Below are positions 44,952 to 63,995 of a stretch of DNA of 64,000 nt, one piece after another. A program made the translations under genes and the position numbers. Position 1 is the first letter of the stretch. The number at the start of each line of letters is the position of its first letter. The notes under the pieces are model-generated. The model was not told the DNA's origin, ran no database searches, and was given only the letters and a program-made list of their open reading frames with translations. Source of the DNA: Bugula neritina (lineage: Eukaryota > Animalia > Bryozoa); assembly GCA_964035545.1 (NCBI GenBank), contig OZ037772.1, positions 11,716,818-11,780,817 of the forward strand, in the 5' to 3' direction.

Positions 44952-47900
44952 ATGGCCGCTTCTCCTTCACTTCTCCTCTTCTTGTGTCTAGCAGTTGCTG
45001 GGTAAGTTATGAATATATTTATAATGTTTTTAATTATAAAACTTAAATCAATTTTAGCTTATTTAAATTATGATAATTATTGAAATACAATTTTAAAATA
45101 ATAAAAGTAATTACCTGCAGCCATGAATAAAGTACCAGGGAATATCTGTCACTATAAATCACGAAATCTCTATGCATACTTTCTATTTTCTTTAAATAAT
45201 TATACTTAAATTTTGATTAAGTTTAGTTCTGCATTTACTTAAAGTCTGTTATATTATAAAAATAAAAGGAAATTAAACACTGTTTGCTAATCTATATGTT
45301 GTCTTAGTTTACTTATTTTCAAAAGAAAATTAATTAAGAGTATGAAAGCGATTGCATCATAGAAACAACTTTTATGCCTTCTCTCAGCATGAGAACATAG
45401 TTATATAATTATAATTATATAGTATTTATATAATGTTGTAGAGCTAATGGGCTGTGGTGCTGTGGTGACATTGACACCAAGGTCACTTCACAGATAAAGC
45501 CTGTGACCCGCTCAAGGACCATTCAGATGACAGCCGTAGAAACCTATAACCTCAAAACAGGTTAGAACAGAGGCTAAACTCTAAATATAAAACTAATTTA
45601 CTATTAGAGTAGGCAAACTATCTTAATATACATTTTAGCTATTTATTCGAAATATATGAGCATGACTGTGCTGTGTTTTAAATTGAGATTTTAGCTACAA
45701 TGAAGGCATTCAATATAGCTTGTGTATGTCAAACAACAACGAAAATTGCCTTATAAGCAGCTGCGAGTTAGGGGAGGGACTATTTTAGCTTGGGGATCTC
45801 GAGTTTGGTGTTGGGGGACCTAACTCCAAACTTGAGACTCCAAACTAAATTCGTCCTTCACCCATAACTCGGAGATGCTTATAGAACAATTCCAACAAAA
45901 CCTCAGACAATAGCCTTTGTTTCTAGGCTATAAGATATGCCCCAACAATACGGTGGCTGAGAAGGACGTGCCGACTGGGCTAGGGAAGAACCCAGACAAC
46001 ACTGAGGAGAATAGAAAGAAAGTTTTTGGAAACAAGGGACGCTTCAACATCCTCGGTCTGCTGCTCAACGGCAAACTTGGTGGGTAGAAGACTTCACATC
46101 CTGTTTTAACTTTCTTGAGTTATTCCATTGGTTCAACTGAGTTTGATAAAACTGTTTATTTATAAACACAGCCACTTTTTTTGTTAAAAACCTAGACAAG
46201 AGCTTACAATATACTGCATATATATATTACAATTTTACGTTATGTTTTATACAGCATTGAGCATGGTAGCTTTTGTTAAAATATATTATATCATTTCATG
46301 CCGTATTGTGTGTGAGAGGTATTATATATCTTGATTGTATGAAACCATTAGAAACAATTAATATGCTGGCCATTAAGGCTTAATTATTGCTGTTATATAT
46401 ACACTTAGGTGTGCAAAAGGTTCTGTACGTGGTTTGTTTGTTGTGTGCGTATGTGTAAATGTGTGTGCGTATATTATATGTAACACATGAGTGTATACTA
46501 TATTATAAATACTTGCATACATGTTGATTATACACGTGACTTTATAAATTGCAGACAATGATGAGTATCACAGCTACTGTCCTGTCTATTCTATCAAAAC
46601 AAGGTAAATTAAACCATATATTACATAATCTGACAAGCTTGTACAGTATAGAAATTTAAATGTCAGGAGATATGAATTGTTTTATAGATAACTCTGCTGC
46701 TATTGGTATACAGAATGCATGTAAATATACTGATATTGTACTTTCAATTAAACCTATGTCTCAAATTTAATAGAATAATATGTCATAATATTGTATTTTC
46801 AAATTAAAGTGAGAAACTTTTTACAAATTTATTTTTAAAAAATGAGTTGAAATTGTAACAATTATTTTCCAAATTTATTTAGACGATTCAGTCGCAATGA
46901 GCGAACCGTTAGTAAATTATATTATGTACTCTGGTAGGCCTGTAGTAAATTATATTATGTAAATATGTGGTAGGCCTGTAGTAAATTATATTATGTACTG
47001 TGGTAGGCCTGCAGTAAAGTATATTATGTACTGTGGTAGGCCTGTAGTAAAGTATATTATGTACTGTGGTATAGGCCTGTAGTGAAGTATATTATATACT
47101 GTGGTAGGCCTGTAGTAAAGTATATTATGTACTGTGGTAGGCCTGTAGTAAAGTATGGCGTAGAATACTACAAGACGGCTGTGTTTGACGATGAAAAGGC
47201 TTCTTGTTCGGCCAATAAAAAGATTTGTTGTCGTGGTTACAAGCAAGTTGGAGAAAACTGTGTAGGTCAGTGAGAGAACAATTCTGGACATATTTTATGT
47301 CGACTAACAACTTTTTAAATAGCCAGTTTGTCACCTTTTGGCTGTGGGCCATTTTTTTCTAATTTCATAAAGAAAATACAAGCTTGTTTAAACTCTCAAT
47401 TTTAAGAGCCAAAAACTGTGCCTATACTAGCATGAATTACTTGAAGGCTCCTGCTTGAAACATATAAGAACAACTGCATGAACAGCTAGGTTTGTTCCCT
47501 GAAATCACCAATGACTTTGACAAGCTGTAAACCCATGATCTAGTGCATATATACTGTATCAATCTTACATTAAATTATATATATAATATATTGTTTTTAA
47601 ATACGTAAATTATATGTTATGTTTATATACGTATATATGTAATTGTGGTGTAATATATATGTGACATGAGTAGTATAATAAGCGCCTCTACGGCTATGGA
47701 AGTAAGCATCTCGCATCGACCAATTTGTCAACATAGTGTAGACTCTATGGCTATGGAAATTAGCATCTCGTTAACTATGTGAGCATTGTATTTGTTATTG
47801 ATGAATTAGCATTGTAAGCCTTAAAGTTGACAGGTGGTAGCTATTAAATTTAGCTTACGGTGAATACACCTTTTAACTAACTACGTAGTCAGAATCTCAC

Positions 47901-50900
47901 GTACTAAAACATTGATCTATGATTAGTTACCCTCGTTATATCACTGTTGTCACTTTGGTAAATTCTACACTCCGTATAATATTCAATAACCAAAAAGAGA
48001 TTTCTTTTCACCATGAGTTTATTTTCTTCAACAAAAAATGTCATAATAGAATATTACAGCTTTAAATTTTAACAGGATAAGAAGCTTGTTCAAAAATAAA
48101 AGGTAAGTCTACAATTTCCAGTTCTTTATTTAAAAAATTACTATATTTTTGATTAATGTAATTAAATATAAAAGCATCATTTGCGTATGTATCACAACAA
48201 TCATTTATTAAAGATATAATGTGTTCTAGTGAGAAACCTCTGGCTAAATGCGTTAACACAAAAATACAGTATTGTCCGCAAACTGTAGAAAATACAGATT
48301 GTAGCTGAGTGCTACTAAATTGCCAAGAGTCTACTGAATCAAATATAGCCGCAACCTCTGGCATGTTGTAAAGACCACTTCCAAAAGAGTCAAAATAAAC
48401 TCCTGTGTTATTTTCTGTCTTTAGAAACATCACCCAGTGCTCTCCCGGATGATTGTGAGGTTTAGTGTTTACAACTCCACAGCAAGGATAATCCGTCAAA
48501 CTACTACTAGGTATTCTATCGACTGGAAATACACCGATGAAGTTCATCTTTTTCACCCACTCATCGTTCTCAAGAATGGAATATATTTCTTTAGAATTCA
48601 TCACGCGTAGAAATTTGTAAGTACCGCTCTATTCTTATCAATTTTTATACCAGAGTCAAATTCGGAATAGACAATCACATTAACGGGTGTGTCAAGAGCC
48701 TGAGAAAACTTTAGCTCTAATCTTATTGTTCCTCGCTTCATCAAATGAAAGCAAGTGCTCAAATCTAGGTCAGGAGTTAAATCAAAGGCCATTAGACTGT
48801 AACCTTTCTCGTATTCCTCTCTATCTATATCTATTCCGCCATTGTTGAACACCTTTCCCGTTGATTCCAAGAGCGTAAAATAGTTTCTTAGAGTATTATG
48901 ATTTGTGTAGTCTGAAACCAATGCCTTCTGAGGTACTTGTTTCCCGTCAACGACTAGGTTTGTATATTTTAAATGTTTGTGCTGAAAGTTGAAAGGATTC
49001 AAATTGTACGCGCCTTCGAATGCACCAGCGTTTACAATACCTATAACTATCCTCTTAGGCAGAATACCGTGAAATAAATTTTCTTCGTTCCAAGACAATG
49101 AACCCAATGCGATATTGAATGACTTCATATCAACTCTTCTGATAGGATAAACGGCTGGCAATAGTTTCTTGTCTAAATTTTCAATGTGCTTTAATTGTAT
49201 TCCGCTATTGATTTTAACTTTTCGAAGGAAAAAAGATGCGTTTAGGATTTTTAGTTTGCAAGTAGAGTTTTCACCAGCCATTAGCACTAAGCTGTTGTGA
49301 TTCCTCACAAACTTTAATTTCATGTCTACTCCATTTAAAATGAATCGTCTTTGAAAGAATATGTCAGCGTGCGGTCTAACAATTAACTGCACAGTTTTAC
49401 TCTGCCCCGTAATTCGCCTTCTAGCTTCCAAGCCTTCATTATCACCACCAATGTGATCCATTTTTCCGGGTGTATCCTTTGAGTAGAGTGACATTGATAG
49501 TTGTGACTTTTTAGCTTCATCGGAGTAACTTAGTAAAGTTTCTATAAGAGCTCTGTAGTGGTAGAGATTAGAAGCGTTGGAAATAACTACATCATTTAGC
49601 ATAATTTCTACTTGTTGAAATAATGTGTGACCCAAAAGGTTTATAGGAGCCGCATCACCTTGAGCATCGAGATCCGTACCGTCAGCTTTTGTTATTTTCA
49701 CCTCTAATAATAGATAGCTTGAACTGAGGTCAAGGTAGTTGTTCGAATCACCAGAGATTGAGAACTTTATAGGTCCCTCATCATTCAGTGAGGTTGTGGG
49801 CATATGTTCTACGTGATATCCTTCTTCGATTGATGCTTGAGTAGGTAGTGTAGAAAATAAATCTAATTCGGGTTTGCCAGCGAGGCAGCTATGTTCCATT
49901 ATGAAACTCATAGTATAGTATTCTATGAAAAGATATCGCGTTTAGTAACCCTACGTCTTTTCACCTTTGAAGACTTGGAAGAAGTAACTCTGTTAGTCTG
50001 ACGCTTCCTTTTTTTATTTCGATTTCTGTTGGTGACGTATGTAATACCTTTAGTAATAACCTCTCCAGCCGCGCTGTTGACATTATCTTTAATTGACTCT
50101 CTGAATGGTTTACCGGATAAACTATCTCTGGCAATGTTTAGACCAGTATTTATTGCTGTCTTTCCTAAACTTTTTACACCTTGTTTTACAACAGGCAATG
50201 CTGCTTTGAGTATGTTACCAAATATGCTCCCTAAACCGTATCCTGTTTGATATTTTTCTCCTGAAAATATTGGAATCATTCCATTTCCTGATTGTTCATA
50301 TAACTGTCTATAGCTATTTGATGCGGCATCACAATCGAATGGAATTATTCTCATATTAGGTTTATAGGTTTAACTTTTCGAATATCTACCGTTACCACTG
50401 TACGTCCATGCGTGAATGGTACTCTTTCACCGTAATCCGTGTATATATAAATTGATACACTCGAAACATGCGTTTTATTTATTTTGCAGTACTGTACATT
50501 GTTAAAGTTAGTGGACTGCAACCTCCAATGACCATCCTCGACTCCTACAACTCTTAGTAGTTGAGCCTGAGTATCTCCAACAATACTAGATTCTGCTACA
50601 TCTGTATACACCATCAGGTTAAATATTGTATGTAATCTTATTGGAGTATTGTACTTGACCAAAATTGTGCCATCGGTCATTGATTTTATCTCCATTTTTT
50701 CTTCCTGTACATTAAGTATTTTCTCAAGAGATGGTGAGTATGTGATGTCTATAGAGCAACCTCTAACATTTTCAGCAATGACATAAAAATTCTTATTGAC
50801 ATCGTTGTAATAGAAATTAAATTTTACTTTCAGATTTAAACACTGGTCATTTATTGCTTGATTGATAGATTGTATTAGCTTTTTATCTGATTTGTAGTAA

Positions 50901-53900
50901 CCATCATCTAGATGCACTGTTTCTTCAGCTTCATTTACTTTTAAGGTTATGCTGCACTGTTTCACATTGAACCATGATTTATAAAATTGTATCTCACTCA
51001 ATCCGATCTCGTAAGAGCCATCTGTAAAATCTAAACTTTGAGGCAATTGAACTGTGTATACTGAAAGACTATTTTTTGGAAAATGCTTCAACGAAGCATT
51101 ACTAGGTAAAACAACGCGCATCTTTGTAAGAGTGACAACATATAAGTTTATTATCTAATTCTTATAGTTAAAAATTACATCTCTTTTATCAACATACGAG
51201 TCAAAACTTGGCGGATATCCAGCCCACCTTACAAGAAATTGTTTTTTACCATTTACAGTACGCTGACCAACAATTGACTCTATTTTATAGGTGTTGCTCT
51301 TGGTGTTTACTTTCTGCAATTCCGGTTCATACCATGTTCCTTCTAGCTGATCACCGCTGTCATCCGCGAGAGAATACACTGGAGGATTAGTAGTGTGGAT
51401 TTTCGCTATGGTAAAGATTTCTTCGCTCCAAGAAGGAAGGTATCCTTTTTTAAATACTGTACTATATTTCGATATTCTAACGAGATCTCCAACATTGTAT
51501 TTTAGTTTGTTAGTTTGACCACTCTGACTATCTGTGTATAGTCTATGCCAAATTTCTTCTTGATTGTTAACTGTCACATCATTAGGTGTTGAGTTATGAG
51601 CCGAGTGTTTCGAGTTATTGTATGATGATATTAGATCATTGAGAATGTCAAGATATCTGTGACTGTTTTGATGAGTAAAATATTTAAACAATTTAGCCTT
51701 TAGTGTTCTTTGCAGTCTTTCAACCATAGATGCTTTAATTTCTTGATTGTTGGATGAAAAGTGGTTTATGTTATATTCTTTCATTAATGCTTTAAATTGA
51801 GGGTTAAAGAATTCTTTGCCTCTATCTGATAAAATCATTTCTGGTGGAGTGTTGTTGTTTTCGTTTTCTATAATCTCCCTCATAGCTCTACTCACTTCTA
51901 AACCAGATTTAGTTTTGAGTGGTACACCGTAGGCTTTACGACTGAATGTGTCAATGCTTAATAGTATATACTTGAATCCATTATTTTCGGATGAAAACTG
52001 TTGGAGATCTGTTAAATCAATTTGCCACATGGCATTAATACCTGATACAATATACTTTCGTCTGGGAAAGTTTTTTCGCAAAGGTTTATGTAGGTTATAG
52101 CTGTCAGTTTTTTCAAGCCATCTATCAATTGCACCCTTGCTTACTTTGCCTTTTAATGATTTGTATAATTTTGCTTTACTACCAAATCCGGCTGGTTTAG
52201 AAATATTGAAATAGGTGTCTCGAATTAGTTTATCAGTATAGCTGGAGTCTGGATTTTGCTTTTTTCGTTTTCGCCTTGCCATCGTATGGATCCCACTCGC
52301 CTGATGACAATTTACTAGACTCTCTTCTACTTTTAGATTTCTCTTCGATAACGTTTTGATTAATGAGTAGTTTGGGTACATTGTAATCAATTAATACTTG
52401 TCTAAATTCTTTCCACCCTTCCAATGTTTTACCTTTCAGTTGACTATTAACCGCAAGATTTAATAGATCAGATAAATTGCTTCCGCGTAGTTGGTTGCCG
52501 TTAATAGTTACCTGCCCCGCATCATTTACAGAAACTTTACCATCTTTTTTCAGTATATCCCAAAGTTGACTCGCCTTTGTTTTAAATCTTTGAGGGATAG
52601 CTAGTAGTGGGTTATAAGATGTAAGACTTTCTGTTTCTTTTAGTTGTGGTTCACTATTCTTTGATAAAGTAGGCAACCTTGTGCTAGATATTTTCTTATA
52701 AGTAGTAGTTTTTAACTCTTGATAATTAGTCAACGCGTTGTTATAAGCAGTTACTTTCTTATTTTCTGATAGCGTGTTGTCATTTAAGATTTCACTCATT
52801 AGCTTATCTACGGCAAATAGTTCTTTAGTAATCAAAGGTTTGTTTCTCTCGACTTGTTGATAATCATTATTTTTGCTGACATCAGCATTTACAAATGAGT
52901 TGTGTTTTAGATCCGCGGCATCCACTAACAAGAATTTTCTAGCGCTTTGCGAATTCATCTTTTTCTAAAACCGCTGAATATTCCTTTCGCTAGTGGTGCT
53001 AGAACACTTCCTATTAGTGGTCCTAAAAGAGCCGAGAGAAACCCTCCTTTCTGTACCAGTGTTTTTTTAGTTTTCAGTGTACTCTTTTTATCAGCAATCT
53101 TTCTTAAAATATTTTTGTATTTACCTAAGTTGTTTTCTTCAGTAGGTGACAATGACACCTTGCCTTTTAATACGTTGTAGCAAATATCTGAGAAACAGTT
53201 CAACAGTTCACTACCCGCTGCGTTGATGATTGCTTTACAGTTGTGTTTGTCACATTCAGCTAAATAACTTAGAGTCTTGGCATGTTTTTTAATTCTAGCG
53301 GTCATGATTTATGTTAGCTTCAAGCTGCATTTCTTTGTAATGAAGTAGCGTTTCTGTTTGACAAATAGATATAGGTTTTCTCACCCGGAAATACACCTGT
53401 TCTAATGCGCAAATAGTCTTCTGTCTCTTGCCTGTAGTCTATAACCAAGTACCCAAAGGGGACAGAAGTGGCGTCTCGAAACGCTTCAACAACAAAATTA
53501 CTCTGGTTTTTAGGAAACATTTGTCTTGCCAAATAGGATATCTGGTTCACGTCTCTAGGGTTTTTAAATACAACAACATAAGAAGCGCTTCGAGACATTG
53601 TTCTCATGTGAGAGTTGTCTTGAAACAGATTCTGTGTTATAAATATTACGCTTATGTTGCGATGGTGACTGTGCTTAGTAAATATGTTTTCAATATTCTG
53701 ATCTATTTCACTCATTAAATCATCAAATATTATCAAGTTTTTTATATTTTTGTTTAATTCTTGTATATCGATAACACCTTGATGAAACTCAACGTTGTTG
53801 TATGAGCTAAACAGTGGCTGCCACTCACTATAACAATATATTATTTTTTCAGGTGGAGGTGATATCATTGTATGACTGTTGGTAATCAATTTCCTTACCC

Positions 53901-56900
53901 ACTGAGTTTTACCAGCCCTTGAAGGACCAGCTACAATTGCTGAAAATGTATGGTAGAAAGGTAAGCTCATGATGTTAACTGTATATTCCGAGAGTTTATT
54001 CCCAAATAATTGTATCAAGTAATGTACAAAAATATTAATAGGCATAAAAAAGTATAAATAGATTTAGGCAAGTTCAGGCATGTTTAGGCATGTTTAGGCA
54101 TGTTTAGGCAAGTTTAGGCAAATATACACAATTATATACAAAATAAACTATTGTACATTGTTTTGTTTCTCGAGAGCTATTCCCAAGTTCCATTGGATCT
54201 GTTGAATAAAATATTTCACTGCGAAGTGTTCTCCAGCCTCGATATACATTTTGCAAATTTGCACGCACAAGAAAAATATTGTTTCTAAGCGAATAGCTGA
54301 GATATTTGGATCAGTCAAATCTTTTGCCACTTTACAAAACTGAACGTAACCGTTAGTCTCGTACATATCCTCGGCTAGTTCGACCAATTCATTTATTTCT
54401 TCCTCACTCCAATTTTGATGTTTATTGTACATGTCCAAAACGGTTTGCGTTATACAATAGTTAACGTAATGTTGTCTACTCATTTTCGAAAGCTTGTACC
54501 ATATATAATTATAAGCGTTTTTCTGTAATAGGTATAAATTTTCCATCGTAGAATATTGATTGATGCGACCTATCAACCGAACAGTGAAATACCAATTAAC
54601 TGAACGCGCTAACTGAACACAGTTTTTTTACAGTAAAGTAGGTTTGGTTGTCACGTGATCTTGTGACACAATTCTCTTTCCGTAAAAATAATTTAAAGCT
54701 TTTCGATTTTGAACGTACGTGAATATTTCTTCACCTTTTACTCGAAAACCCTTGTTCGTACCGTAAGCAATTTTCTGATTTATCAATACATCGAAGTAAT
54801 CTTTTTCGGTATAGTTGTTGTGCAATTTACTGACACCTTTTGAACTGTATTTAGGTTCTTCCCCGAAACAATAGTAACATTTGGAGCAAAGCGCTACAAC
54901 ACCTCGGGAGACATTTTCGCAGTGAAACAACCCCAAAGATCTTTTGTGGAACTTGGCACTAGCTTTACAACAGTCTAATGGATTCCAGGTTTGCCCGTTA
55001 AACATACATTGAAAATATTGTGACTTGTGTTCATCGCAATATTCTCTACACATCCAACTAGTGTGTTCTTGTTCAAATTCATTTCTCATATCACTTTTAA
55101 CCGCTAGGTACAAAGTTTTTTCACTTAGAGCTAAATACATTGAGTCAGTGTCCATTTGAATCAAAGCAAAACTGTCTAGAGATAGAAACTTTAACAAGAA
55201 ATCGTAATAGAATTTCAACATGGCTAGCTTTGCATACTCTAATACTTGAAAGCCAATTTGTACTGGTACATTGAGTCTAATCTTAGCTTTTCGTGATTCA
55301 ATTTCAACTAGTTGAGAATCAATTTCTTGTAAGCTGTTAAATCTAGGATTGTTTACCAGTCTTGAGATGTTTGTCTCTTCAGCATCACAATATATGATAT
55401 CAGTGTGACTCTCCAGGTTGACTAGTGTTCGGCCATACGCAGAGTTTCCTGAAATATAGCGAAGTGGATTATTTTGAAATATATTGAGTAATTATTCAAT
55501 GCAAAAGTTATCGCTCTTGCTAGATGCTTAAGTGATTTGCATATTAATAACCATTGAATAAGTGCTATGTCTAAACATGTCAATATTTACTAAATACCTA
55601 TTAGTTTGCATGAATCCGATATAATCTTCTTTGAGGAATCGAGGTCACCAGCTCTCCTGGCCTCCATTACCTTTTCACCAAACAGCTTGAAGCATTTTGA
55701 TGGCTTGTATTGAATTACTTGATATACTTTTGTAACCACTAAGCCGTGTTGTAGGTACCATTGCAGTAGCGGGGTGGACAAAAGGATTTTGTTCCCGAAA
55801 TAGCTACTGATTAAAGTACGTGATGGCTTTTTTAGTAAACCATTTCGTTCTGCAAATTGTTTCATGTGTGGGCCTATGTCATCCCTTGATATCAGTACAT
55901 TTTTTTGTATAGGTTGATATTTAGCAAATATTGTTTTCAAGTCTTCAGGTGTTTCTATATCAACTTCAGCCATTCCAAACATTGAACCATTTTTGATTTC
56001 TTCTAGTATTTTGCTTTCTGATATTACGTATCTTGAATCAACAATGAAGTCCAGATTTGAGCAGAACTCACTGACATCACTGTTTTCCTTTTTCAAATTA
56101 TCAAATTCACACTCCCAAGTATGGTAGACTCTGTAACCCAAATCTTGGAAATATTTCAGCGTATTGTATGTGTCTATTTGATTTTGTAAATCTTTTTCTT
56201 TGTTATTAAACTTTCCATTTGGACAATAGTCGCATAGATGTCCGTGAAACCAGCATCCTGAGTAGTTGAACACTTGTTCACTACCATCACTCGCCAGAGC
56301 GTATCCATCGACTGGTATGTTTCGTCCACCTATTCGACGTTCGGTGCTATTAAACTTGTGTTGAATTTTGACTCCGAGCAGCTTTGACATGTATTTTAGC
56401 CATACTGTAGCTTTTTCACCCGAATAGTAGCTTTTTTCTATTCTAAAGCTATTTTCTCTCCGCCTTCTTACAAAGGCTCCTGTGGGCATATCTTTCACTA
56501 GGCAACTCAAATATAAACTTGTCGCATCATACCCTACACATGTTTGCGTAGTTTTGGCTTGATCACCAAAGTATTCAGGTTTAATCTTTGTTGCGCCAGC
56601 TTCTTGATACCTTGAGAACACAATTGATAAACCACCTCTAATGTTTGATTTGATAAGTTGGTGAATGTCTTTAAACTTATCACCAAACAGAAAGATTGGC
56701 GCTTCTGGGTCTTTTAATTGAAATAAATATTGAATCGCTAGTCCTGGTATAGATATAGCTGACTTGAAATCAAGATTGCATGATTTGTAAAATTCATTTT
56801 GCTTTTCTAATGCTGGTATAAAGTGTCTGACATCTTCGTTATTGTAGTACTCTAGTAAGTCTTTTAATGTTTTCATTCCTTTCTGCACCCATATTTCTTT

Positions 56901-59900
56901 GCATTTTTCATACTCCTGAACGGATATGTTTTTACCTTTCAGTTTACTGTAAAACTCTTCATGAGCGGGGAACTCTGTTCTGTCTAGCACTTCCATAGAT
57001 GTGAATATGTCATAAGGCCAGAAGAATTTTTCCCCTTCAACTCCCATAGCTTTTAGATAATCAGAGTACGAAAACCCTGGAGCAAGGAAATTGAGCACGT
57101 CTAGAAATCTTAATTTTTCCGTTTGAATACACATGTATTTGTTTCCTTTTTTAGCTGTAAACAAAACTTTTTGGTTTTGTTCTAATAGATACCGTAGCAT
57201 ATGTTGTCGAATCAATGGAATGTCATAGACAGCGCCGTTGAAAGACAAGATCATCAAGTCTTTCAAATAACAGTGGAGTTGACTTTCTAGTGATTCAAAC
57301 TTTTTTTTGACATTGTTCACTGCTTTGTTATTACAACTAGCTTCAATTTCTTTCTTGATACACTCGTCAGCTTTTTCACGTAGTTGTTTAAACACATCAT
57401 TGTATCTAACAAGCAATCTCTGGTAGCATACTTCAGACAGCTTTGTAAGGAAATCCATCATTTTCACAACCAGCTCGTATTCATTTCCAGAATTCATGAA
57501 ATTCACTGGTTGTGTATAGCCAGATACGTTTGAGCATAAACTTATACAAGCCAACTTGTGTTTGTTTTCATAGTGTATTGTATTTGTGTTTGCAGGTAAA
57601 TCAATCGAAGACATCATCGTTTCGCAATCAAACACAGCAAAGTACGGATAATGTCGTCTATTTTCATCAACTGTGATGTGAACATCTTCAAGCTTTTCGA
57701 AAATAGATCGAGACGGAGTATACACCCCGTAGGGATACACAAGGTTTGTTTCACCAGCTGTACATACTGTGTTATGACTATTCAACGCTCTGACTGATTT
57801 CATTAGCTTGTTACAAAATGTACATTTGTATGACTTTGTGTAAAGAGAGATGTTTTTTATCCAACTGAAATGTGATTCCTCTAGATGTAGGTTTAGTTTG
57901 TGTTTGTAATTGGTAGTGGCTCTGTACATAAGCTTTGCATTAGCTTCTTTCCCTGTATTGTATTCCAAGGTGTACACATTAATAGAACAGTTCAGTATTC
58001 GCTCGGCAAATCTGAGGTCTGATAAAGGCACTCCTGTAAAATCTTGATTCAGTTTGTTCATACCATTCAAGTACATTTCATAATAATGTTTCGTAGACTG
58101 TGTTAAAGTACTCTGCTGCCCCTTTGAGTAAGCTAGAGCTCTAAATAGACATAAGTTGTCTTCATACAGTCTTCCAGTTGTATCAGTGCTAGCTGTTATA
58201 ATTGCTTTGTTTTGTTTTGTTCTCTCAGATGGAGATATAGGGCATCCGATATTGTGATCTGGTATAGGAAATACATACAATGTAATATTTGTTATTTTGT
58301 GAACACTCCACGAAGTGTTTGGCCTGTTTTGAGTTGCTTTCTCTATGAAATCTTTTTCTGTCATTTCTTTCACAAGTTGATTGAAATCTTGTAAATTCTC
58401 TATTAGCTTTGGCGAGGCAAAAAGTTTATCAACACCCATGCTAGCATGAAAGTATCTCAACTTTTCCTCATTTTGATTCAAAAGGATAAAACCAATTGAA
58501 GCATTGCATTTGAATTTCAATGTTTGTTCATGAAATATTAATTTCACTTCTTTATTGTTTAAAGTTGAAATAATGTCATTGTCTTTTATCAATCGATTGT
58601 AGACACTACAATATTTCCCTTTTCTGTTGTACGTTCTTATAGCTGACCAGTTTTTTCTCAATAGAGCATTTGTTTCCTCTTCGTAAATGCCTTTGTACTG
58701 ATAGCGTTCAATATCATCACTGAATGTGGTTTGAGGCTTTTTGTTTGACCTTCTCTCTGCTCCGTTTGAGTTTGTATTCTAAAATTTACCAAGATTACCA
58801 TTGATTAGTTAGCTTTGAGTTTGTTGTAATAGTATATGTAGTATGATCATATTCATATCGTATCGTATCACTCAGTAGATAAATTACCGTGTTATGACAT
58901 CGGTGATTTGTTTTCCACGGTGCATACAACCGTTTACATTGATCACATCTTTTTTTGTGGATACTTTGGTGCCTGCTCAAACTTTGCCTGTGGTTATAAC
59001 TTTTTCCACATATGTGGCACTTGAATTTCTCTAAAACATTGAAGTATAAATTATTCTTTTAACCACCTTGATAGAGATGCAAGGATCAAAGAAAATTACT
59101 TCAAATAGAGATATTGTTTATTAATATGTAAATAGATACACTCATAAATGTATATACTTGACATATAGTGGCATTATCAGATAGAATTGTCAGGTTTACT
59201 ACACTCTTCATCAGAGCCAGAAGAACAGTGTTTTAAACTTTTTCATCGAGTATATATTAAGATATATTGAAATAAATTGAAATAGATTGAAGTATATAGA
59301 TATTGTATATTAACAACTCGCTTTTATACATTTTGTGTTTAATAGTGGCAGAGATAGTATTGAATTTCTTTTCATCGAGTATATATTGAGATAGATTGAA
59401 GTATATAGATATTGTATATTAACAACTCGCTTTTATACATTTTGTGTATAATAGTGGCAGAGATAGTATTGAGTTTCTTTTCATCGAGTATATATTGAAA
59501 TAGATTGAAGTATATAGATATTGTATATTAACAACTCGCTTTTATACATTTTGTGTTTAATAGTGGCAGAGATAGTATTGAGTTTCTTTTCATCGAGTAT
59601 ATATTGAAATAGATTGAAGTATATAGATATTGTATATTAACAACTCGCTTTTATACATTTTGTGTTTAATAGTGGCAGAGATAGTATTGAATTTCTTTTC
59701 ATCGAGTATATATTGAGATAGATTGTAATATATGGATGTTGTATATTAACAACTCGCTTTTATACATTTTGGGTTTAATAGTGGCAGAGATAGTATTGAA
59801 TTTCTTTTCATCGAGTATATATTGAGATAGATTGAAGTATATAGATATTGTATATTAACAACTCGCTTTTATACATTTTGGGTTTAATAGTGGCAGAGAT

Positions 59901-62900
59901 AGTATTGAATTTCTTTTCATTGAGTATATATTGAGATAGATTGAAGTATATAGATATTGTATATTAACAACTCGCTTTTATACATTTTGGGTTTAATAGT
60001 GGCAGAGATAGTATTGAATTTCTTTTCATCGAGTATATATTGAGATAGATTGAAGTATATAGATATTGTATATTAACAACTCGCTTTTATACATTTTGGG
60101 TTTAATAGTGGCAGAGATATAGTATTGAGTTTCTTTTCATTGAGTATATATTGAGATAGATTGAAGTATATAGATATTGTATATTAACAACTCGCTTTTA
60201 TACATTTTGGGTTTAATAGTGGCAGAGATAGTATTGAATTTCTTTTCATTGAGTATATATTGAGATAGATTGTAATATATAGATGTTGTATATTAACAAC
60301 TCGCTTTTATACATTCAATAGTAGCAGTGCTAGTATTGAATTTCTTTTCATTGAGTATATATTGAGATAGATTGTAATATATAGATGTTGTATATTAACT
60401 CGTTTTTATACATTCAATAGTAGCGGTGCTAGTATTGAATTTCTTTTCACTGAGTATATATTGAGATAGATTGTAATATATAGATGTTGTATATTAACAA
60501 CTCGCTTTTATACATTCAATAGTAGCAGTGCTAGTATTGAATTTCTTTTCATTGAGTATATATTGAGATAGATTGTAATATATAGATGTTGTATATTAAC
60601 AACTCGCTTTTATACATTTTGTGTTTAATAGTGGCAGAGATAGTATTGAATTTTTTTTCATTGAGTATATATTGAGATAGATTGTAATATATAGATGTTG
60701 TGTATTAACAACTCGCTTTTATACATTTTGTGTTTAATAGTGGCAGAGATAGTATTGAATTTCTTTTTACTGATTATATATTGAGATATATTGTAACAAT
60801 ATTTTAAACAATAATACGCATAAAAGTATTCCATTCACCAACATAAAATATTTCCCCATCACCAAAAAATACAACATATTTATATTAGAGAGTCAGTGTC
60901 AGTCCGTCAGCCTAAAAATTTTATGATCGGCTCCGATCGTTTAAAATAATTATATTCATCCGGTGATATGTCGTCTAGTTTGATTTCGGTCACATTTAGT
61001 GACCAAAATAAGTCCTCGTTTACTTTTTTTATCACACCGCTTCTCAACACGCATGTTAATTTTCCCACTTTTCCATACAGTTGTTGTACATTTAATAACA
61101 CAGGTTGTCCATTGACTACAGCATTTACGCAAATTTCGTCTTCCATGTTTCTGACCACGTCAACATAACATCCGAGCAATGATGCATTTTCACTTTTACC
61201 GTAAAACTTAACTTTTTTTTCAAAAATTTTAGCTAGCTTTGTTTTAAAAAGTTCTAGATTTTTAGATTTTTTCACATATAAACATGGCCCACTGTTGGGA
61301 ATTTTCGACTCGTATATTTTTAATTCACCTATAAATTCATCAGATTTAAAAAAGAATTTACGCGAATGATTAAATGTAGGTATTATCTTGTCATTGTCAG
61401 TGTAGTAGGATAATTGTGATTGATCATAATTAAGAGGGACTAAATAGCAACCTTCTTCATTTGCAGGTGTTTTGCTCTGATCGACAGCGGTAGCAGCAGT
61501 GGCAGCATCATCACTTGTAGTAACAGTTGTACCAGTAGAGGAACTAGCGGATGGAATAGACAACGTCATAGAGGAAGGAGTGGTAGTAGCGCTAAAAAAG
61601 AGGGATCTATTACTATGTTTTATAATATGTAACTTATTCTACGTAATATAATTTATTACACGACAAACGTCTGTTTATTTGTTTATAGTTTGTCAAGTGA
61701 ATACAATTAATTGTGAGTCTTACAGATGATTGATGATTTACGATATTCTACTAACCTCACGCTGGTAGATACAGATGGCTCGCTAGTCGACTCATCCACC
61801 TTTGGAATTGATGCAGGTTTCTTACGCTTTGATTCACCAGACTTAGATTCACTAAAATAATATTATTGTAATGAATAAAATGCTACTTTTAGCTGATAAA
61901 AAAGGTTAGCATAATTATAGAAAGCTAACACTATAGTAAACTAAAATCATTCTCGTGTTAATAATATTCTAACAGGTTAGTGGTTAGCATAGTTATAGAA
62001 AGCTAACACTATAGTAAACTAAAATCATTCTCATGTTAATAATATTCTAACAGGTTAGTGGTGAGATATCCAAAAGAAATATATTATTACTTACTTTTTT
62101 CTTTTAGAAGGCTTTAAGGCTTTGAGTGGTTCAACTGTACTGGAACTAGTACTCGTTTCTCCCACTTTTCTTCTGAGTTGTAGTAGTTCAGCTTCTAACT
62201 TCTTTACTAAATCTCCCATGGTGTTTGCTGTATGGTTTGGGATGCGATGAAACATAGAAGTTTTTCGAGGCTTTTATATACTGAGATTTTGTAATTTATT
62301 CCTACGTAAATGAAATTTATCTTAACTAAAAGTTTTCCTCTTTTTTATTATAGGGAGTTGGGTGGTAACATTTTAATTGTAATCTGCCGGTTTAAGGTTT
62401 ACTCACGTAAGCAATATTATATCAGTTTACGTAGGTGATACGTGTTTTAACAGTTGCATATGTATTTAAATTTCAACTAGGACACTTCCCATCCGTAAAT
62501 TAGAAATTGCCGTGTCATCCATCTTAGCTGAAAAATTTTCCGATTTCTAACTATAATGAGGAATTGAGTTGTTAAATTTTAAATACAATCCACCCATCTA
62601 GGGTTTAATTACTGGGCGATATTATATCAGGTTATACAAGATTTTATTATGTTTTACTTCCCATTGATTAAATTGGAAACCGCTGTGTCACCTCCTAATT
62701 TTTGCTAATATTAATTTTTACTTTGTCAAAGTTTCAAACATCATTAGCATAAGGTTAATTATCTTTTTTCTGCTTTTTGAGTTTCAGAAAAATTGTGTCA
62801 AGTTATAAGTTTAAAAATGGAGTTGCAAATAGAGTTGGACCATAAGACATGTTTTTTGTTTCCATTTAACATTTTATTATAAACTATGAGTTGTATACAG

Positions 62901-63995
62901 AAAAACATTACATTCCGTAATAATTATTTTCTAAAATGTGTTTAGTCAAAACTGTTAACAGCTTAGATGGTGAAGACGCATCACTCTGAGACATATTACC
63001 ATTCAAGAAAAAATATTGTATAGTTATAAAATCCCCGTGAACTTTAGTGTTGCAAACAGCTAGTTTTAAATTGTCAGTCATTTCGAAGTGTTTTGTGCAG
63101 TTATTGAACATTCTGTCTAAAGTATAATTAGTTGAAAACATCTTTCCAGAAAAGCTACCATTACCGCTCATAACTATGTTGATTACATTCATTGATAAAA
63201 ATAGTGCTACCAGGATAATAGCGATAGGTTTCTTTTTTAGTTCTGAAAAGCTCCAGTCATTCTTTGCATTATCTCTCCTGGTCGAAACTTTATTAATGAG
63301 TGTATTCCGATTATGTACAACTTTTCTCGCCACATCTAACTCATCTTCAGCCACATTTGCATCTTGTTCATTAAATATAGGATCTTTATTTTGCAAGGGA
63401 AAATTTTCTACTTCTGTCATCATTGATTAACCTTTGCGCTCAAAACATATAACGATGAATGATGTAAATTTCAGAATGGTGATGTTTTATACCAAAAAAC
63501 ACACAAATTTTGACTCGCAAACTGTATAACTCTCAGCTCAGTGAGTAAATTTTGTTACTTATAAAGTTAGTGACAAGGATATACAGCTAAACTAATCATT
63601 GATCCACCTTCCAGTAATTGCTTAAAAAGGTGTATTCACTGTAAGCTAAATTTAATAGCTACCACCTGTCAACTTTAAGGCTTACAATGCTCACATAGTT
63701 AACGAGATGCTAATTTCCATAGCCATAGAGTCTACGCTATGTTGACAAATTGACCGATACGAGATGCTTACTTCCATAGCCGTAGAGGGGCTTATTATAC
63801 TACTGACATGTGCTTACTATTAACACAGAAACATACATATTATTATGTGTAAAATATATGCACGCATTCGATCTCATATGTGAGGAATTGCTGTGTTACA
63901 AATACAAACCTGTCATTTGTTTTGCAGAAGAAAAAAAAGCTGGTGATGCAAATGACGCTCTGGACTTCCTTAAGGGTCTTGGCATTGTTGGATAA
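44952..63995 (+). CDS. Small secreted EMI-domain-like host protein, ~7 exons; last intron contains the Polinton
   Basis: Phase-compatible exons: 44952-45001 (signal peptide MAASPSLLLFLCLAVAG), 45442-45560, 45927-~46079, 46555-46603, 46883-~46910, ~47149-47265 (…KICCRGYKQVGENCV, EMI-type CCxGY-x5-6-C end; phase-1 donor G|GTCAGT) and 63928-63995 (TTTGCAG|AA, phase 1; EEKKAGDANDALDFLKGLGIVG-stop). Confidence 0.7.
45745..45890. mobile_element. Short palindromic MITE-like element
   Basis: Imperfect inverted arms AATTGCCTTATAAGCAGCTGCGAGTTA ... TAACTCGGAGATGCTTATAGAACAATT, with an inner CTCGAGTTTGG/CCAAACTTGAG pair. Confidence 0.55.
46911..47155. repeat. ~33-bp tandem repeat filling an intron of the EMI-like gene
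   Basis: Unit TATTATGTACTGTGGTAGGCCTGTAGTAAAGTA, ~7 copies, running into the next exon. Confidence 0.9.
47669..47874 (+). repeat. Left TIR (206 bp)
   Basis: Reverse complement of 63625-63804, with 6 substitutions and a 26-bp extra segment. Confidence 0.95.
48062..48601 (-). CDS. Adenain-like cysteine maturation protease (PRO)
   Basis: Motifs NTKPHNHPGEHWV, YFDSFG, QLQS..STVCGQYC (His/Asp/Gln/Cys). ATG at 48601 overlaps the MCP stop (TGATG). Confidence 0.92.
   Translation of the reverse strand: MNSKEIYSILENDEWVKKMNFIGVFPVDRIPSSSLTDYPCCGVVNTKPHNHPGEHWVMFLKTENNTGVYFDSFGSGLYNMPEVAAIFDSVDSWQFSSTQLQSVFSTVCGQYCIFVLTHLARGFSLEHIISLINDCCDTYANDAFIFNYINQKYSNFLNKELEIVDLPFIFEQASYPVKI
48601..49911 (-). 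CDS. Major capsid protein (double jelly-roll, Polinton PY/hexon-like), 436 aa
   Basis: ELDLFSTLPTQASI, YLDLSSSYL, TLFQQVEIMLN, YHYRALIETLL, LPKRIVIG, NPFNFQH, GYSLMAFDLTPD are typical Maverick MCP motifs; position fits. Confidence 0.9.
   Translation of the reverse strand: MSFIMEHSCLAGKPELDLFSTLPTQASIEEGYHVEHMPTTSLNDEGPIKFSISGDSNNYLDLSSSYLLLEVKITKADGTDLDAQGDAAPINLLGHTLFQQVEIMLNDVVISNASNLYHYRALIETLLSYSDEAKKSQLSMSLYSKDTPGKMDHIGGDNEGLEARRRITGQSKTVQLIVRPHADIFFQRRFILNGVDMKLKFVRNHNSLVLMAGENSTCKLKILNASFFLRKVKINSGIQLKHIENLDKKLLPAVYPIRRVDMKSFNIALGSLSWNEENLFHGILPKRIVIGIVNAGAFEGAYNLNPFNFQHKHLKYTNLVVDGKQVPQKALVSDYTNHNTLRNYFTLLESTGKVFNNGGIDIDREEYEKGYSLMAFDLTPDLDLSTCFHLMKRGTIRLELKFSQALDTPVNVIVYSEFDSGIKIDKNRAVLTNFYA
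49923..50354 (-). CDS. Conserved small basic Maverick protein (putative core/membrane-lytic precursor), 143 aa
   Basis: QSGNG / QTGYGLGSIFG..LKAALP motif, amphipathic helix, K/R-rich tail ending DIFS; lies between the minor and major capsid genes. Confidence 0.7.
   Translation of the reverse strand: MRIIPFDCDAASNSYRQLYEQSGNGMIPIFSGEKYQTGYGLGSIFGNILKAALPVVKQGVKSLGKTAINTGLNIARDSLSGKPFRESIKDNVNSAAGEVITKGITYVTNRNRNKKRKRQTNRVTSSKSSKVKRRRVTKRDIFS
50351..51121 (-). CDS. Minor capsid protein (penton, single jelly-roll), 256 aa
   Basis: N-terminal VLPSNAS..FPKNSLSVYTVQLP..YEIGLSEI and C-terminal VYTDVAESSIVGDTQAQLLRVV motifs of Maverick mCP. Confidence 0.85.
   Translation of the reverse strand: MRVVLPSNASLKHFPKNSLSVYTVQLPQSLDFTDGSYEIGLSEIQFYKSWFNVKQCSITLKVNEAEETVHLDDGYYKSDKKLIQSINQAINDQCLNLKVKFNFYYNDVNKNFYVIAENVRGCSIDITYSPSLEKILNVQEEKMEIKSMTDGTILVKYNTPIRLHTIFNLMVYTDVAESSIVGDTQAQLLRVVGVEDGHWRLQSTNFNNVQYCKINKTHVSSVSIYIYTDYGERVPFTHGRTVVTVDIRKVKPINLI
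51155..52282 (-). CDS. Retroviral-type (rve/c-int) DDE integrase with C-terminal chromodomain; probable start MARRKRKK at 52282 (ORF open to 52390)
   Basis: WQIDLTD, LSDRGKEF, ASMVERLQRTLK (D,D,E); KGYLPSWSEEIF; chromo-like YKIESIVGQR...FLVRWAGYPPSFDSYV. Confidence 0.93.
   Translation of the reverse strand: MARRKRKKQNPDSSYTDKLIRDTYFNISKPAGFGSKAKLYKSLKGKVSKGAIDRWLEKTDSYNLHKPLRKNFPRRKYIVSGINAMWQIDLTDLQQFSSENNGFKYILLSIDTFSRKAYGVPLKTKSGLEVSRAMREIIENENNNTPPEMILSDRGKEFFNPQFKALMKEYNINHFSSNNQEIKASMVERLQRTLKAKLFKYFTHQNSHRYLDILNDLISSYNNSKHSAHNSTPNDVTVNNQEEIWHRLYTDSQSGQTNKLKYNVGDLVRISKYSTVFKKGYLPSWSEEIFTIAKIHTTNPPVYSLADDSGDQLEGTWYEPELQKVNTKSNTYKIESIVGQRTVNGKKQFLVRWAGYPPSFDSYVDKRDVIFNYKN
52233..52958 (-). 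CDS. Conserved Maverick hypothetical protein (PZ-type, label tentative), 241 aa
   Basis: Motifs MSEIL..LSENKKV..Y, VNDAGQVTING..LRGSNLSDLL, GWKEF..NVP resemble the uncharacterised ORF seen next to the integrase in animal Mavericks. Confidence 0.7.
   Translation of the reverse strand: MNSQSARKFLLVDAADLKHNSFVNADVSKNNDYQQVERNKPLITKELFAVDKLMSEILNDNTLSENKKVTAYNNALTNYQELKTTTYKKISSTRLPTLSKNSEPQLKETESLTSYNPLLAIPQRFKTKASQLWDILKKDGKVSVNDAGQVTINGNQLRGSNLSDLLNLAVNSQLKGKTLEGWKEFRQVLIDYNVPKLLINQNVIEEKSKSRRESSKLSSGEWDPYDGKAKTKKAKSRLQLY
52955..53305 (-). CDS. Conserved small basic Maverick protein with adenovirus pX/mu-like C-terminus, 116 aa
   Basis: NVLKGKVSL..YKNILRKIADKK..LVQKGGFLSALLGPLIG; ATGA overlap with the next gene. 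Confidence 0.75.
   Translation of the reverse strand: MTARIKKHAKTLSYLAECDKHNCKAIINAAGSELLNCFSDICYNVLKGKVSLSPTEENNLGKYKNILRKIADKKSTLKTKKTLVQKGGFLSALLGPLIGSVLAPLAKGIFSGFRKR
53320..53970 (-). CDS. FtsK/A32-like DNA packaging ATPase (probable start MSLPF at 53970; ORF open to 54045)
   Basis: Walker A GPSRAGKT, Walker B LIIFDD, HHRNISVIFITQNLF, VFKNPRD, PFGYLVID. Confidence 0.92.
   Translation of the reverse strand: MSLPFYHTFSAIVAGPSRAGKTQWVRKLITNSHTMISPPPEKIIYCYSEWQPLFSSYNNVEFHQGVIDIQELNKNIKNLIIFDDLMSEIDQNIENIFTKHSHHRNISVIFITQNLFQDNSHMRTMSRSASYVVVFKNPRDVNQISYLARQMFPKNQSNFVVEAFRDATSVPFGYLVIDYRQETEDYLRIRTGVFPGEKTYIYLSNRNATSLQRNAA
54066..54115. promoter_or_regulatory. Five tandem p53-family consensus half-sites (putative response element)
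   Basis: AGGCAAGTTC AGGCATGTTT AGGCATGTTT AGGCATGTTT AGGCAAGTTT; each is 10/10 RRRCWWGYYY with zero spacer. Function is untested. Confidence 0.6.
54148..54546 (-). CDS. Accessory alpha-helical protein, putative divergent Bcl-2-like fold, 132 aa
   Basis: ATG at 54546 (MENLY). The segment GYVQFCKVAKDLTDPNISAIRLETIFFLCVQIC...V..F...I...L keeps the gap-free register of the Bcl-2-family alpha4-BH1-alpha5-alpha6 region. The ORF is well supported; the fold is inferred. Confidence 0.55.
   Translation of the reverse strand: MENLYLLQKNAYNYIWYKLSKMSRQHYVNYCITQTVLDMYNKHQNWSEEEINELVELAEDMYETNGYVQFCKVAKDLTDPNISAIRLETIFFLCVQICKMYIEAGEHFAVKYFIQQIQWNLGIALEKQNNVQ
54628..59030 (-). CDS. polB: Protein-primed family B DNA polymerase (pPolB) polyprotein, spliced: exons 59030-58888, 58778-55598, 55448-54628; first exon unresolved; ~1380 aa
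   Basis: ExoI FDCET, ExoII FNGAVYD, ExoIII YNNEDV, motif A YDATSLY, motif B KLIG|NSAYG rebuilt across a 149-bp GT-AG intron, motif C MDTDS, KCY..SKGV. The N-terminal part has a C2H2 finger and an OTU-like DNLCLFRAL..SHFSW region. Confidence 0.92.
59240..60797. repeat. 109-bp tandem array, 14 copies (three ~100-102-bp variants), inside the Polinton
   Basis: Anchor CAACTCGCTTTTATACA recurs at 59314, 59423, 59532, 59641, 59750, 59859, 59968, 60077, 60188, 60297, ~60398 (degenerate), 60498, 60600, 60709. Confidence 0.95.
60907..62219 (-). CDS. Three-exon Polinton gene (62219-62095, 61851-61756, 61591-60907), 301 aa; putative nuclear ssDNA-binding protein
   Basis: Kozak ACCATGG at 62219; donors AA|GTAAGT and AG|GTTAGT; acceptors TTTTAG; both introns are phase 2 and the frame is continuous into track ORF 60907-61569. 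Coiled-coil N-terminus, KRKN..KRKKP NLS-like motif, S/T-rich linker, beta-rich C-domain. Confidence 0.75.
62271..62280 (-). promoter_or_regulatory. TATA box of the 3-exon gene
   Basis: TATATAAAAG about 50 nt upstream of the Kozak ATG at 62219. Confidence 0.6.
62908..63423 (-). CDS. Accessory single-pass membrane protein, 171 aa
   Basis: KKKPIAIILVALFLSMNVINIVMSG signal-anchor-like segment, followed by N-x-S/T sequons NGS, NYT, NCT, NMS; TATAAAA at 63491-63485. Confidence 0.65.
   Translation of the reverse strand: MMTEVENFPLQNKDPIFNEQDANVAEDELDVARKVVHNRNTLINKVSTRRDNAKNDWSFSELKKKPIAIILVALFLSMNVINIVMSGNGSFSGKMFSTNYTLDRMFNNCTKHFEMTDNLKLAVCNTKVHGDFITIQYFFLNGNMSQSDASSPSKLLTVLTKHILENNYYGM
63625..63804 (-). 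repeat. Right TIR (180 bp)
   Basis: Inverted copy of the left terminus; ends ...TTATACTACT followed by the TSD GACATG. Confidence 0.95.

Follow-up and report, generated by a model that had tools for sequence, protein, structure and literature searches.

A complete Polinton of 16,136 bp (positions 47669 to 63804) in the genome of the bryozoan Bugula neritina carries an array of p53-type half-sites directly before its packaging ATPase gene. On the basis of the DNA sequence, we read this array as a lineage-specific p53-family response element that was amplified by slippage and that likely switches on the late gene block (probability, approximately 0.42). Counting activation and repression together, we give somewhat better than even odds that the array has been selected as a p53-family site. 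Under the proposed mechanism, one site would have arisen in this lineage and then multiplied by slippage, and host p53/p63 tetramers would bind the resulting array. DNA damage, or the element's own replicating or linear DNA, would raise p53; binding of the p53-family protein would then activate the packaging/integrase/capsid block, while a Bcl-2-fold protein encoded next door would delay cell death. The slippage origin, the binding by a host protein, the activation, and the late block as the target are all things that we infer. The late-block reading is supported by the position of the array, which occupies the only promoter-sized gap ahead of the packaging, integrase, and capsid genes. p53-family proteins are known from across the animals. 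The cnidarian protein nvp63 is reported to bind the vertebrate p53 sequence and to bring about the death of germ cells damaged by UV (PMC1964547).

The array and the element that carries it

The array lies in a window of 64,000 nucleotides (i.e., the whole stretch of DNA that was analyzed), which was chosen because of the motif. Five abutting perfect RRRCWWGYYY decamers, starting at 54066, 54076, 54086, 54096, and 54106, were confirmed, as was the statement of an earlier note that the units differ only at degenerate consensus positions. The variation comprises two kinds of substitution, and 8 of the 30 possible single changes in a unit leave RRRCWWGYYY intact anyway. The cores are mostly CATG. 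The consensus of a p53 response element consists of two RRRCWWGYYY decamers with a short spacer or none (PMC4323202), and the array, with five perfect decamers and a spacer of 0 between them, is a p53-family response element by this sequence definition. The only full p53-type sites in the 64-kb window (core C/G intact; up to 2 mismatches) are the four overlapping 20-mers of the array, while single half-sites occur at chance level (19 observed; 18.4 expected). The earlier caveat that a tandem repeat needs only one lucky unit (roughly 1 in 400 by that estimate) was right: we computed that 1 in about 480 to 500 random 10-mers has a matching rotation at the composition of the window. Given the 16 period-10 tandem-repeat rows in the window, approximately 0.03 lucky arrays are expected per window, which is unlikely for one window and common across a scan of many; thus, the array alone proves little. 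In a word search, the perfect units matched none of the motifs for heat-shock factor, NF-kB, grainyhead, E-box proteins, or adenovirus packaging repeats, and these were rejected as identities of the array. Forkhead was likewise rejected, the single forkhead-like word being confined to the degenerate edge.

Table 1. Features of the element and of the gap that holds the array (window positions)
Feature	Position	Strand	Evidence or remark
Left terminal inverted repeat (TIR), starts AGTAGT	47669..47874	+	Repeat search; 6-bp target duplication 47663-47668 just before
Rest of late block: ORF116, ORF241, integrase, ORF256, ORF143, capsid, protease	48062..53305	-	Genes abut or overlap
Double-jelly-roll major capsid protein	48601..49911	-	Structure model matches PBCV-1 VP54, E 2e-16 (Foldseek), also Sputnik capsid
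rve integrase with chromodomain	51155..52381	-	Pfam rve E 2.4e-14, Chromo E 1.8e-6
Packaging ATPase (IVa2/A32-like), heads late block	53320..53970	-	Pfam Adeno_IVa2 E 8.6e-5
AATAAA, candidate poly(A) signal of polymerase/Bcl-2-like unit	53995..54000	-	Word search
TATTTATA, candidate TATA box, below array on coding strand, 90 bp before ATPase ATG	54053..54060	-	Word search; reads TATAAATA on +
Array of five RRRCWWGYYY half-sites, 10-bp phase	54066..54115	.	Pattern match
Decayed sixth unit	54116..54125	.	Pattern match, 2 mismatches
TATATAA, second candidate TATA box, above array on coding strand	54132..54138	-	Word search
ORF132, 132-aa Bcl-2-fold protein directly upstream of array	54148..54546	-	Structure model, pLDDT 92
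Family-B polymerase (presumed), two open frames	54628..58439	-	Catalytic motifs; predicted 149-bp GT-AG intron 55449-55597 inside motif B
ORF220, probable last exon of early gene	60907..61569	-	Look-alikes DUF5871/DUF2738/Pox_I3, score 0.91-0.95, low recognition value

The element belongs to the Polinton/adintovirus group by its integrase, capsid, ATPase, and termini (Table 1). Polinton/adintovirus termini are inverted repeats that start with AG and are flanked by a 6-bp target duplication; the two TIR arms here are 96% and 99% complementary. The right TIR occupies 63625 to 63804 (minus strand), and the 6 bp behind it (63805 to 63810) are identical to the duplication at the left end. All genes are on the minus strand, in the order ORF171, ORF220, polymerase, ORF132, array, ATPase, ORF116, ORF241, integrase, ORF256, ORF143, capsid, protease, and the order of the late block is identical in seven relatives (L003, L005, L011, L014, L019, L025, and L032). 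The ATPase has 1,562 homologues at E<=1e-20, many with PF04665, and their alignment places the conserved start at ATG 53970, 95 bp from the array, in agreement with the approximately 95 bp noted earlier; an in-frame ATG farther upstream, at 54045, lacks such conservation. By its position, ORF256 would be a minor capsid protein. The protease matches only Peptidase_C5 (E 0.016, below the cut-off), and its position is conserved in relatives.

The two open frames between ORF220 and ORF132 contain DxxSLY, KxxxNSxYG, and DTDS motifs, on which the naming as a probable family-B polymerase is based; Pfam, PHROG, and PDB gave no polymerase match. The split was ruled out as a sign of a broken gene, since it matches a conserved GT-AG intron beyond which the frame is open to the stop. 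Its acceptor position is common to L003, L004, L005, L007, and L045, at the same codon of motif B; the window, L003, L005, and L007 show the donor as well as the acceptor, and L004 and L045 show only the acceptor. The gene is uninterrupted in the L025 and L030 families, and none of the RNA joints listed crosses the intron. ORF220 is likely a single-strand DNA-binding protein, an assignment to be taken as a lead only. Between ORF220 and the polymerase (59272 to 60793) lie 14 copies of a 109-bp tandem repeat with 95% identity. Among the relatives, L003 carries a dUTPase-like ORF (identified by eye; 1985 to 2479) ahead of its polymerase, and L083 to L091 are Polinton contigs within bacterial genome bins (Chlamydiia, Sedimenticola, and Chromatiales), a placement that is probably due to host contamination.

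ORF132 is predicted to have the Bcl-2 helical fold. In Foldseek searches with its structure model, Bcl-xL/Bcl-2 ranked first (probability 1.0; TM about 0.65) with weak E values (best, 0.095), and none of the matches listed names another fold. Two of the seven ORF132 alignment members matched Pfam Bcl-2 (best E, 0.0023). NWGR is a signature in BH1 of Bcl-2 proteins, and it is missing from all seven aligned sequences. Bcl2 homologues have been described in some adintoviruses (PMC8502044). The array had been placed at the junction of the replication and morphogenesis modules; the packaging/capsid block is indeed downstream, but the gene directly upstream is this Bcl-2-fold ORF and not the polymerase.

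The gap between ORF132 and the ATPase gene (54147 to 53971) is 177 bp long. Since the genes of the late block abut or overlap, and since no TATA word lies 90 bp or less from the capsid start or from any of the five starts that separate it from the ATPase gene, this gap is likely the promoter of the whole block. The sequence that the earlier note had reported after the array on the coding strand was found (i.e., TATTTATA, 54060 to 54053), while that reading did not include the canonical TATATAA above the array. TATAWAW words occur 55 to 132 bp before the ATPase ATG in 8 of 10 relatives examined (one of the 8 being an AT repeat), and TATATAA itself occurs 61 to 70 bp before it in L004, L005, and L013; these words in relatives support the presence of a promoter at this place. 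Both words in the gap are putative TATA boxes, and the choice between them sets the role of the array: with TATTTATA, it would be an upstream activator site, whereas with TATATAA it would cover the start site, which counts against activation and fits repression. If the AATAAA at 54000 to 53995 ends the polymerase/Bcl-2-like transcript, as it may, the array would also lie in that 3' UTR. A contig from run X10 covers 53975 to 54144; contigs cannot show transcript ends or strand.

Near-identical copies and related elements

Relatives were compared as DNA at two ranges, i.e., near-identical copies (from about 98%) and elements with 30 to 65% ATPase identity. The array is present in all four runs compared (X1, X2, X5, and X6). 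Runs X2, X5, and X6 (three samples, two studies) carry a six-unit form that differs by two within-consensus changes and, in the last unit, by one off-consensus change, the latter counting against the p53 reading; the contigs of X1 break at the array, and the X10 contig runs through it and has one additional unit. Every near-identical copy seen has five or more perfect units, and the number of units varies between 5 and 6, as slippage predicts. Given this retention, the array belongs to the family and not to one insertion. Other host contigs that match the array core (runs X1, X2, and X5) continue into half-sites in the same 10-bp phase and in reversed orientation (judged by eye), which is not a product of slippage alone. 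Such in-phase arrays of mixed orientation have at least four other flank types; they were retrieved through their likeness to the array, and they hint at support for a p53-type site.

Several further features of the copies were recorded. A joint in X13 (49608>54187) marks an internally deleted copy that fuses the Bcl-2-like ORF to the capsid gene and has lost the array and the ATPase-to-ORF143 block; a B. neritina protein (P0124) is such an ORF132-capsid fusion (88 to 93% identity) and agrees with this joint. In X1, contig depth over window positions 47572 to 59200 is about 1,000 to 1,150, compared with 89.7 on the left-junction contig (values that do not represent copy number), and three other flanks occur at the terminal repeat; together, these hint at many near-identical or free copies. 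In RNA-like runs, a spliced transcript opposite to all element genes spans 48100 to 57745 on the plus strand. Its GT..AG joints are 53958>54853 and 54985>57593 (X10 and X13; two studies), 51437>53851 (X10), 48616>50490 and 50615>51289 (X13), and 48100>48423 (X9 and X13). This transcript is probably read-through from a host promoter and may feed small-RNA silencing. A start of the antisense RNA at the array was ruled out, because the first exons of this RNA are located far upstream, and the array falls inside one of its introns.

Beyond the near-identical copies, we examined 81 ATPase loci (L001 to L081; 30 to 65% identity), for 70 of which the sequence extends 150 bp or more upstream of the gene. 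In these 70, the 300 bp ahead of the ATPase start contain no full site, even when up to 3 mismatches are allowed, and a lone half-site was found there in two. The five families that share the Bcl-2-like/ATPase gene order are among those without a full site. Conservation of the array in related elements, which the earlier note had proposed as a check, was therefore not found at this place (0 of 70); the array is kept only in near-identical copies. Across six elements, the aligned ATPase upstream regions have a mean column identity of 42% and are uninformative. Nine more distant loci, most of which lack the terminal early region, contain no p53-type cluster. In viral contigs, the ATPase gave no match with a single protein as the query and one distant locus (L001) with alignments, and exon 2 of the polymerase gave none; a two-unit pattern matched once, inside a phage DNA polymerase gene, and was treated as a chance match.

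A p53-type cluster in L007 and L009

Among L001 to L081, two p53-type clusters were found in 493,932 bases, compared with a mean of 0.25 over 12 shuffles. The cluster in L007 is located about 400 bp before the homologue of ORF220, and L009 has three in-phase half-sites at the homologous place, again with the ORF220 homologue behind them. These clusters are not tandem repeats: the half-sites differ and are partly spaced, and they form two to three full sites with 1 mismatch. L009 and L007 are 91% identical from the polymerase onward and 67% identical in the early genes. The full site that they share is identical at 16 of 20 positions, with all four core C/G positions kept, compared with 186 of 433 positions outside the three conserved blocks. 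The two further footprints in this region (L007, 480 to 760; L009, 762 to 1000) are a 10/10 word of bZIP type, presumably PAR-bZIP/ATF, and a 21/21 word of presumed GC-box/TALE type. The bZIP-type decamer is at a fixed distance of 57 to 58 bp from the p53-type site, which itself is 204 to 215 bp upstream of the GC-box/TALE-type words. Neither the bZIP-type nor the GC-box/TALE-type word is present in the element of the window. The cluster in L041 and a full site in L067 were set aside as support, as both lie away from recognizable Polinton genes.

For a comparison of the p53 consensus with 319 equally degenerate palindromic motifs, we used the window together with those loci that have the same set of genes, which are 25 of the 81 (11 families and 242 kb in all). 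For the p53 consensus, strong clusters were obtained in 2 of the 11 families and full sites in 3. By comparison, 316 of the 319 control motifs have no strong cluster, the strong clusters of the remaining three fall in these same families (one of the three being a rotation of the consensus), and no control motif reaches three families with a full site. The other nine families of the clade, most of them without the terminal early region, have no strong p53-type cluster. Since the family of the window had been selected for the motif, the independent evidence amounts to one family in ten.

The p53-type reading of the earlier note thus gains from the diverged and positionally conserved cluster in L007/L009, from the retention of the array in near-identical copies, and from the Bcl-2-fold neighbor, but not from conservation ahead of the ATPase (0 of 70). 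Taken together, these comparisons lead us to regard the array as real, lineage-specific, and of p53 type, with one independent parallel in the clade. A broader claim would be that animal Polintons of this clade have more than once, and independently, built sites for the host p53 family into their promoters (i.e., of the late block here and, in L007/L009, of a replication gene) and combine such sites with a Bcl-2-fold gene. They would then be DNA-damage-responsive proviruses that time replication and virion building through the germline guardian p53/p63, and this would be the missing trigger for the long-sought Polinton virions. We put this forward tentatively, as a rather unlikely generalization.

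Alternative readings and known systems

The array could instead be a neutral slippage minisatellite that began as a single lucky decamer between two genes, in AT-rich DNA, and that may bind p53 in vitro without having been selected for this. An expectation of approximately 0.03 lucky units per window makes such an array common once many windows are scanned, tandem repeats abound in the element and its flanks (151 rows), the number of units varies and the edge units decay, and the array is absent ahead of the ATPase in 70 of 70 relatives. This explanation leaves the non-tandem, footprint-conserved cluster of L007/L009 and the result with the 319 control motifs unaccounted for, however, and the at least five perfect units in every near-identical copy seen also speak against it; we consider it unlikely, though it keeps a substantial minority share of the probability. 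As a p53-family site, the array might alternatively repress the late block, a protein over the start site below TATATAA quieting the capsid and integrase genes in a manner comparable to the human LINE-1 5' UTR. LINE-1 is described as repressed by p53 through sites in its 5' UTR (PMC7608743), the TATATAA at 54138 to 54132 resembles the TATA words before the ATPase genes of relatives, and transcription that began about 30 bp below it would start within the array. Against this stand the second TATA-like word below the array and the enhancer-like position of the L007/L009 site, 204 to 215 bp upstream of the GC-box/TALE-type words; moreover, amplification and retention of a site that does nothing but harm would be surprising in a multicopy family. 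Repression seems improbable to us.

It is more doubtful still that the array is a binding site for a factor encoded by the element (e.g., a late activator or a packaging or replication factor) and that its likeness to p53 sites is incidental. While the array directly precedes the gene of an IVa2-like ATPase, and while virus-coded DNA-binding proteins take part in adenovirus late control (PMC3807333), a site of this kind would be expected to be conserved along with the viral proteins, yet it is absent from this place in 70 relatives. In addition, the perfect units contain no adenovirus packaging-repeat word, and similar arrays occur in unrelated host flanks. The reading that we prefer remains that of a p53-family response element that would switch on the late block.

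The site is so clean that it is a named candidate trigger for integrated Polintons and for the making of their virions. If the preferred reading is true, an invertebrate provirus has converged on an adenovirus trick (i.e., p53 as a late switch), and p53, usually a guardian against mobile DNA, is exploited by a mobile element. A search of literature that was mostly open access found no report of p53 sites in Polintons.

In SOS induction of lambdoid prophages, a latent element reads the DNA-damage signal of its host through repressor cleavage. The earlier note had likened the array to such a system, and the analogy holds in part: the L007/L009 site, which precedes a replication gene, fits it better, whereas the array of the window fits an adenovirus-like early-to-late switch better. 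The expected targets of SOS-like induction are genes for replication or excision, and since the array precedes late genes and not these, the analogy is looser here. The present system would also operate without repressor cleavage, and the likeness is one drawn from sequence.

Mobile elements with p53 response elements are known (i.e., LINE-1, LTR/ERV, Alu, and zebrafish EnSpm-N6_DR), and the reports describe their sites as able to repress the element or drive nearby genes (PMC7608743 and PMC3485254). These are vertebrate retroelements or a nonautonomous DNA transposon, whereas the present element is an invertebrate DNA provirus that encodes a capsid and has the site between modules of its own genes. 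With adintoviruses, Polintons, and Mavericks as described by Starrett et al. 2021 (PMC8502044), who argue the viral status of Polintons from gene content, it shares the rve integrase with chromodomain, FtsK-type ATPase, and capsid genes, the terminal repeats, and probably the PolB and protease genes. It differs from the adintoviruses described there in its p53-type array and its spliceosomal-type polymerase intron; in the main text of that paper, neither p53 nor promoter occurs, and the sole mention of an intron concerns bidnaparvoviruses. The closest likeness is the L4 promoter of adenovirus 5, an internal promoter of a double-jelly-roll virus at which p53 turns on late virion-building genes. 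According to the report on this promoter, p53 binds and activates it and is needed for late gene expression, binding and activation having been shown and the sites only predicted (Wright and Leppard 2013, PMC3807333). Compared with L4, the site described here is a perfect five-unit array, known from sequence alone, in an integrated invertebrate element and directly before the packaging ATPase.
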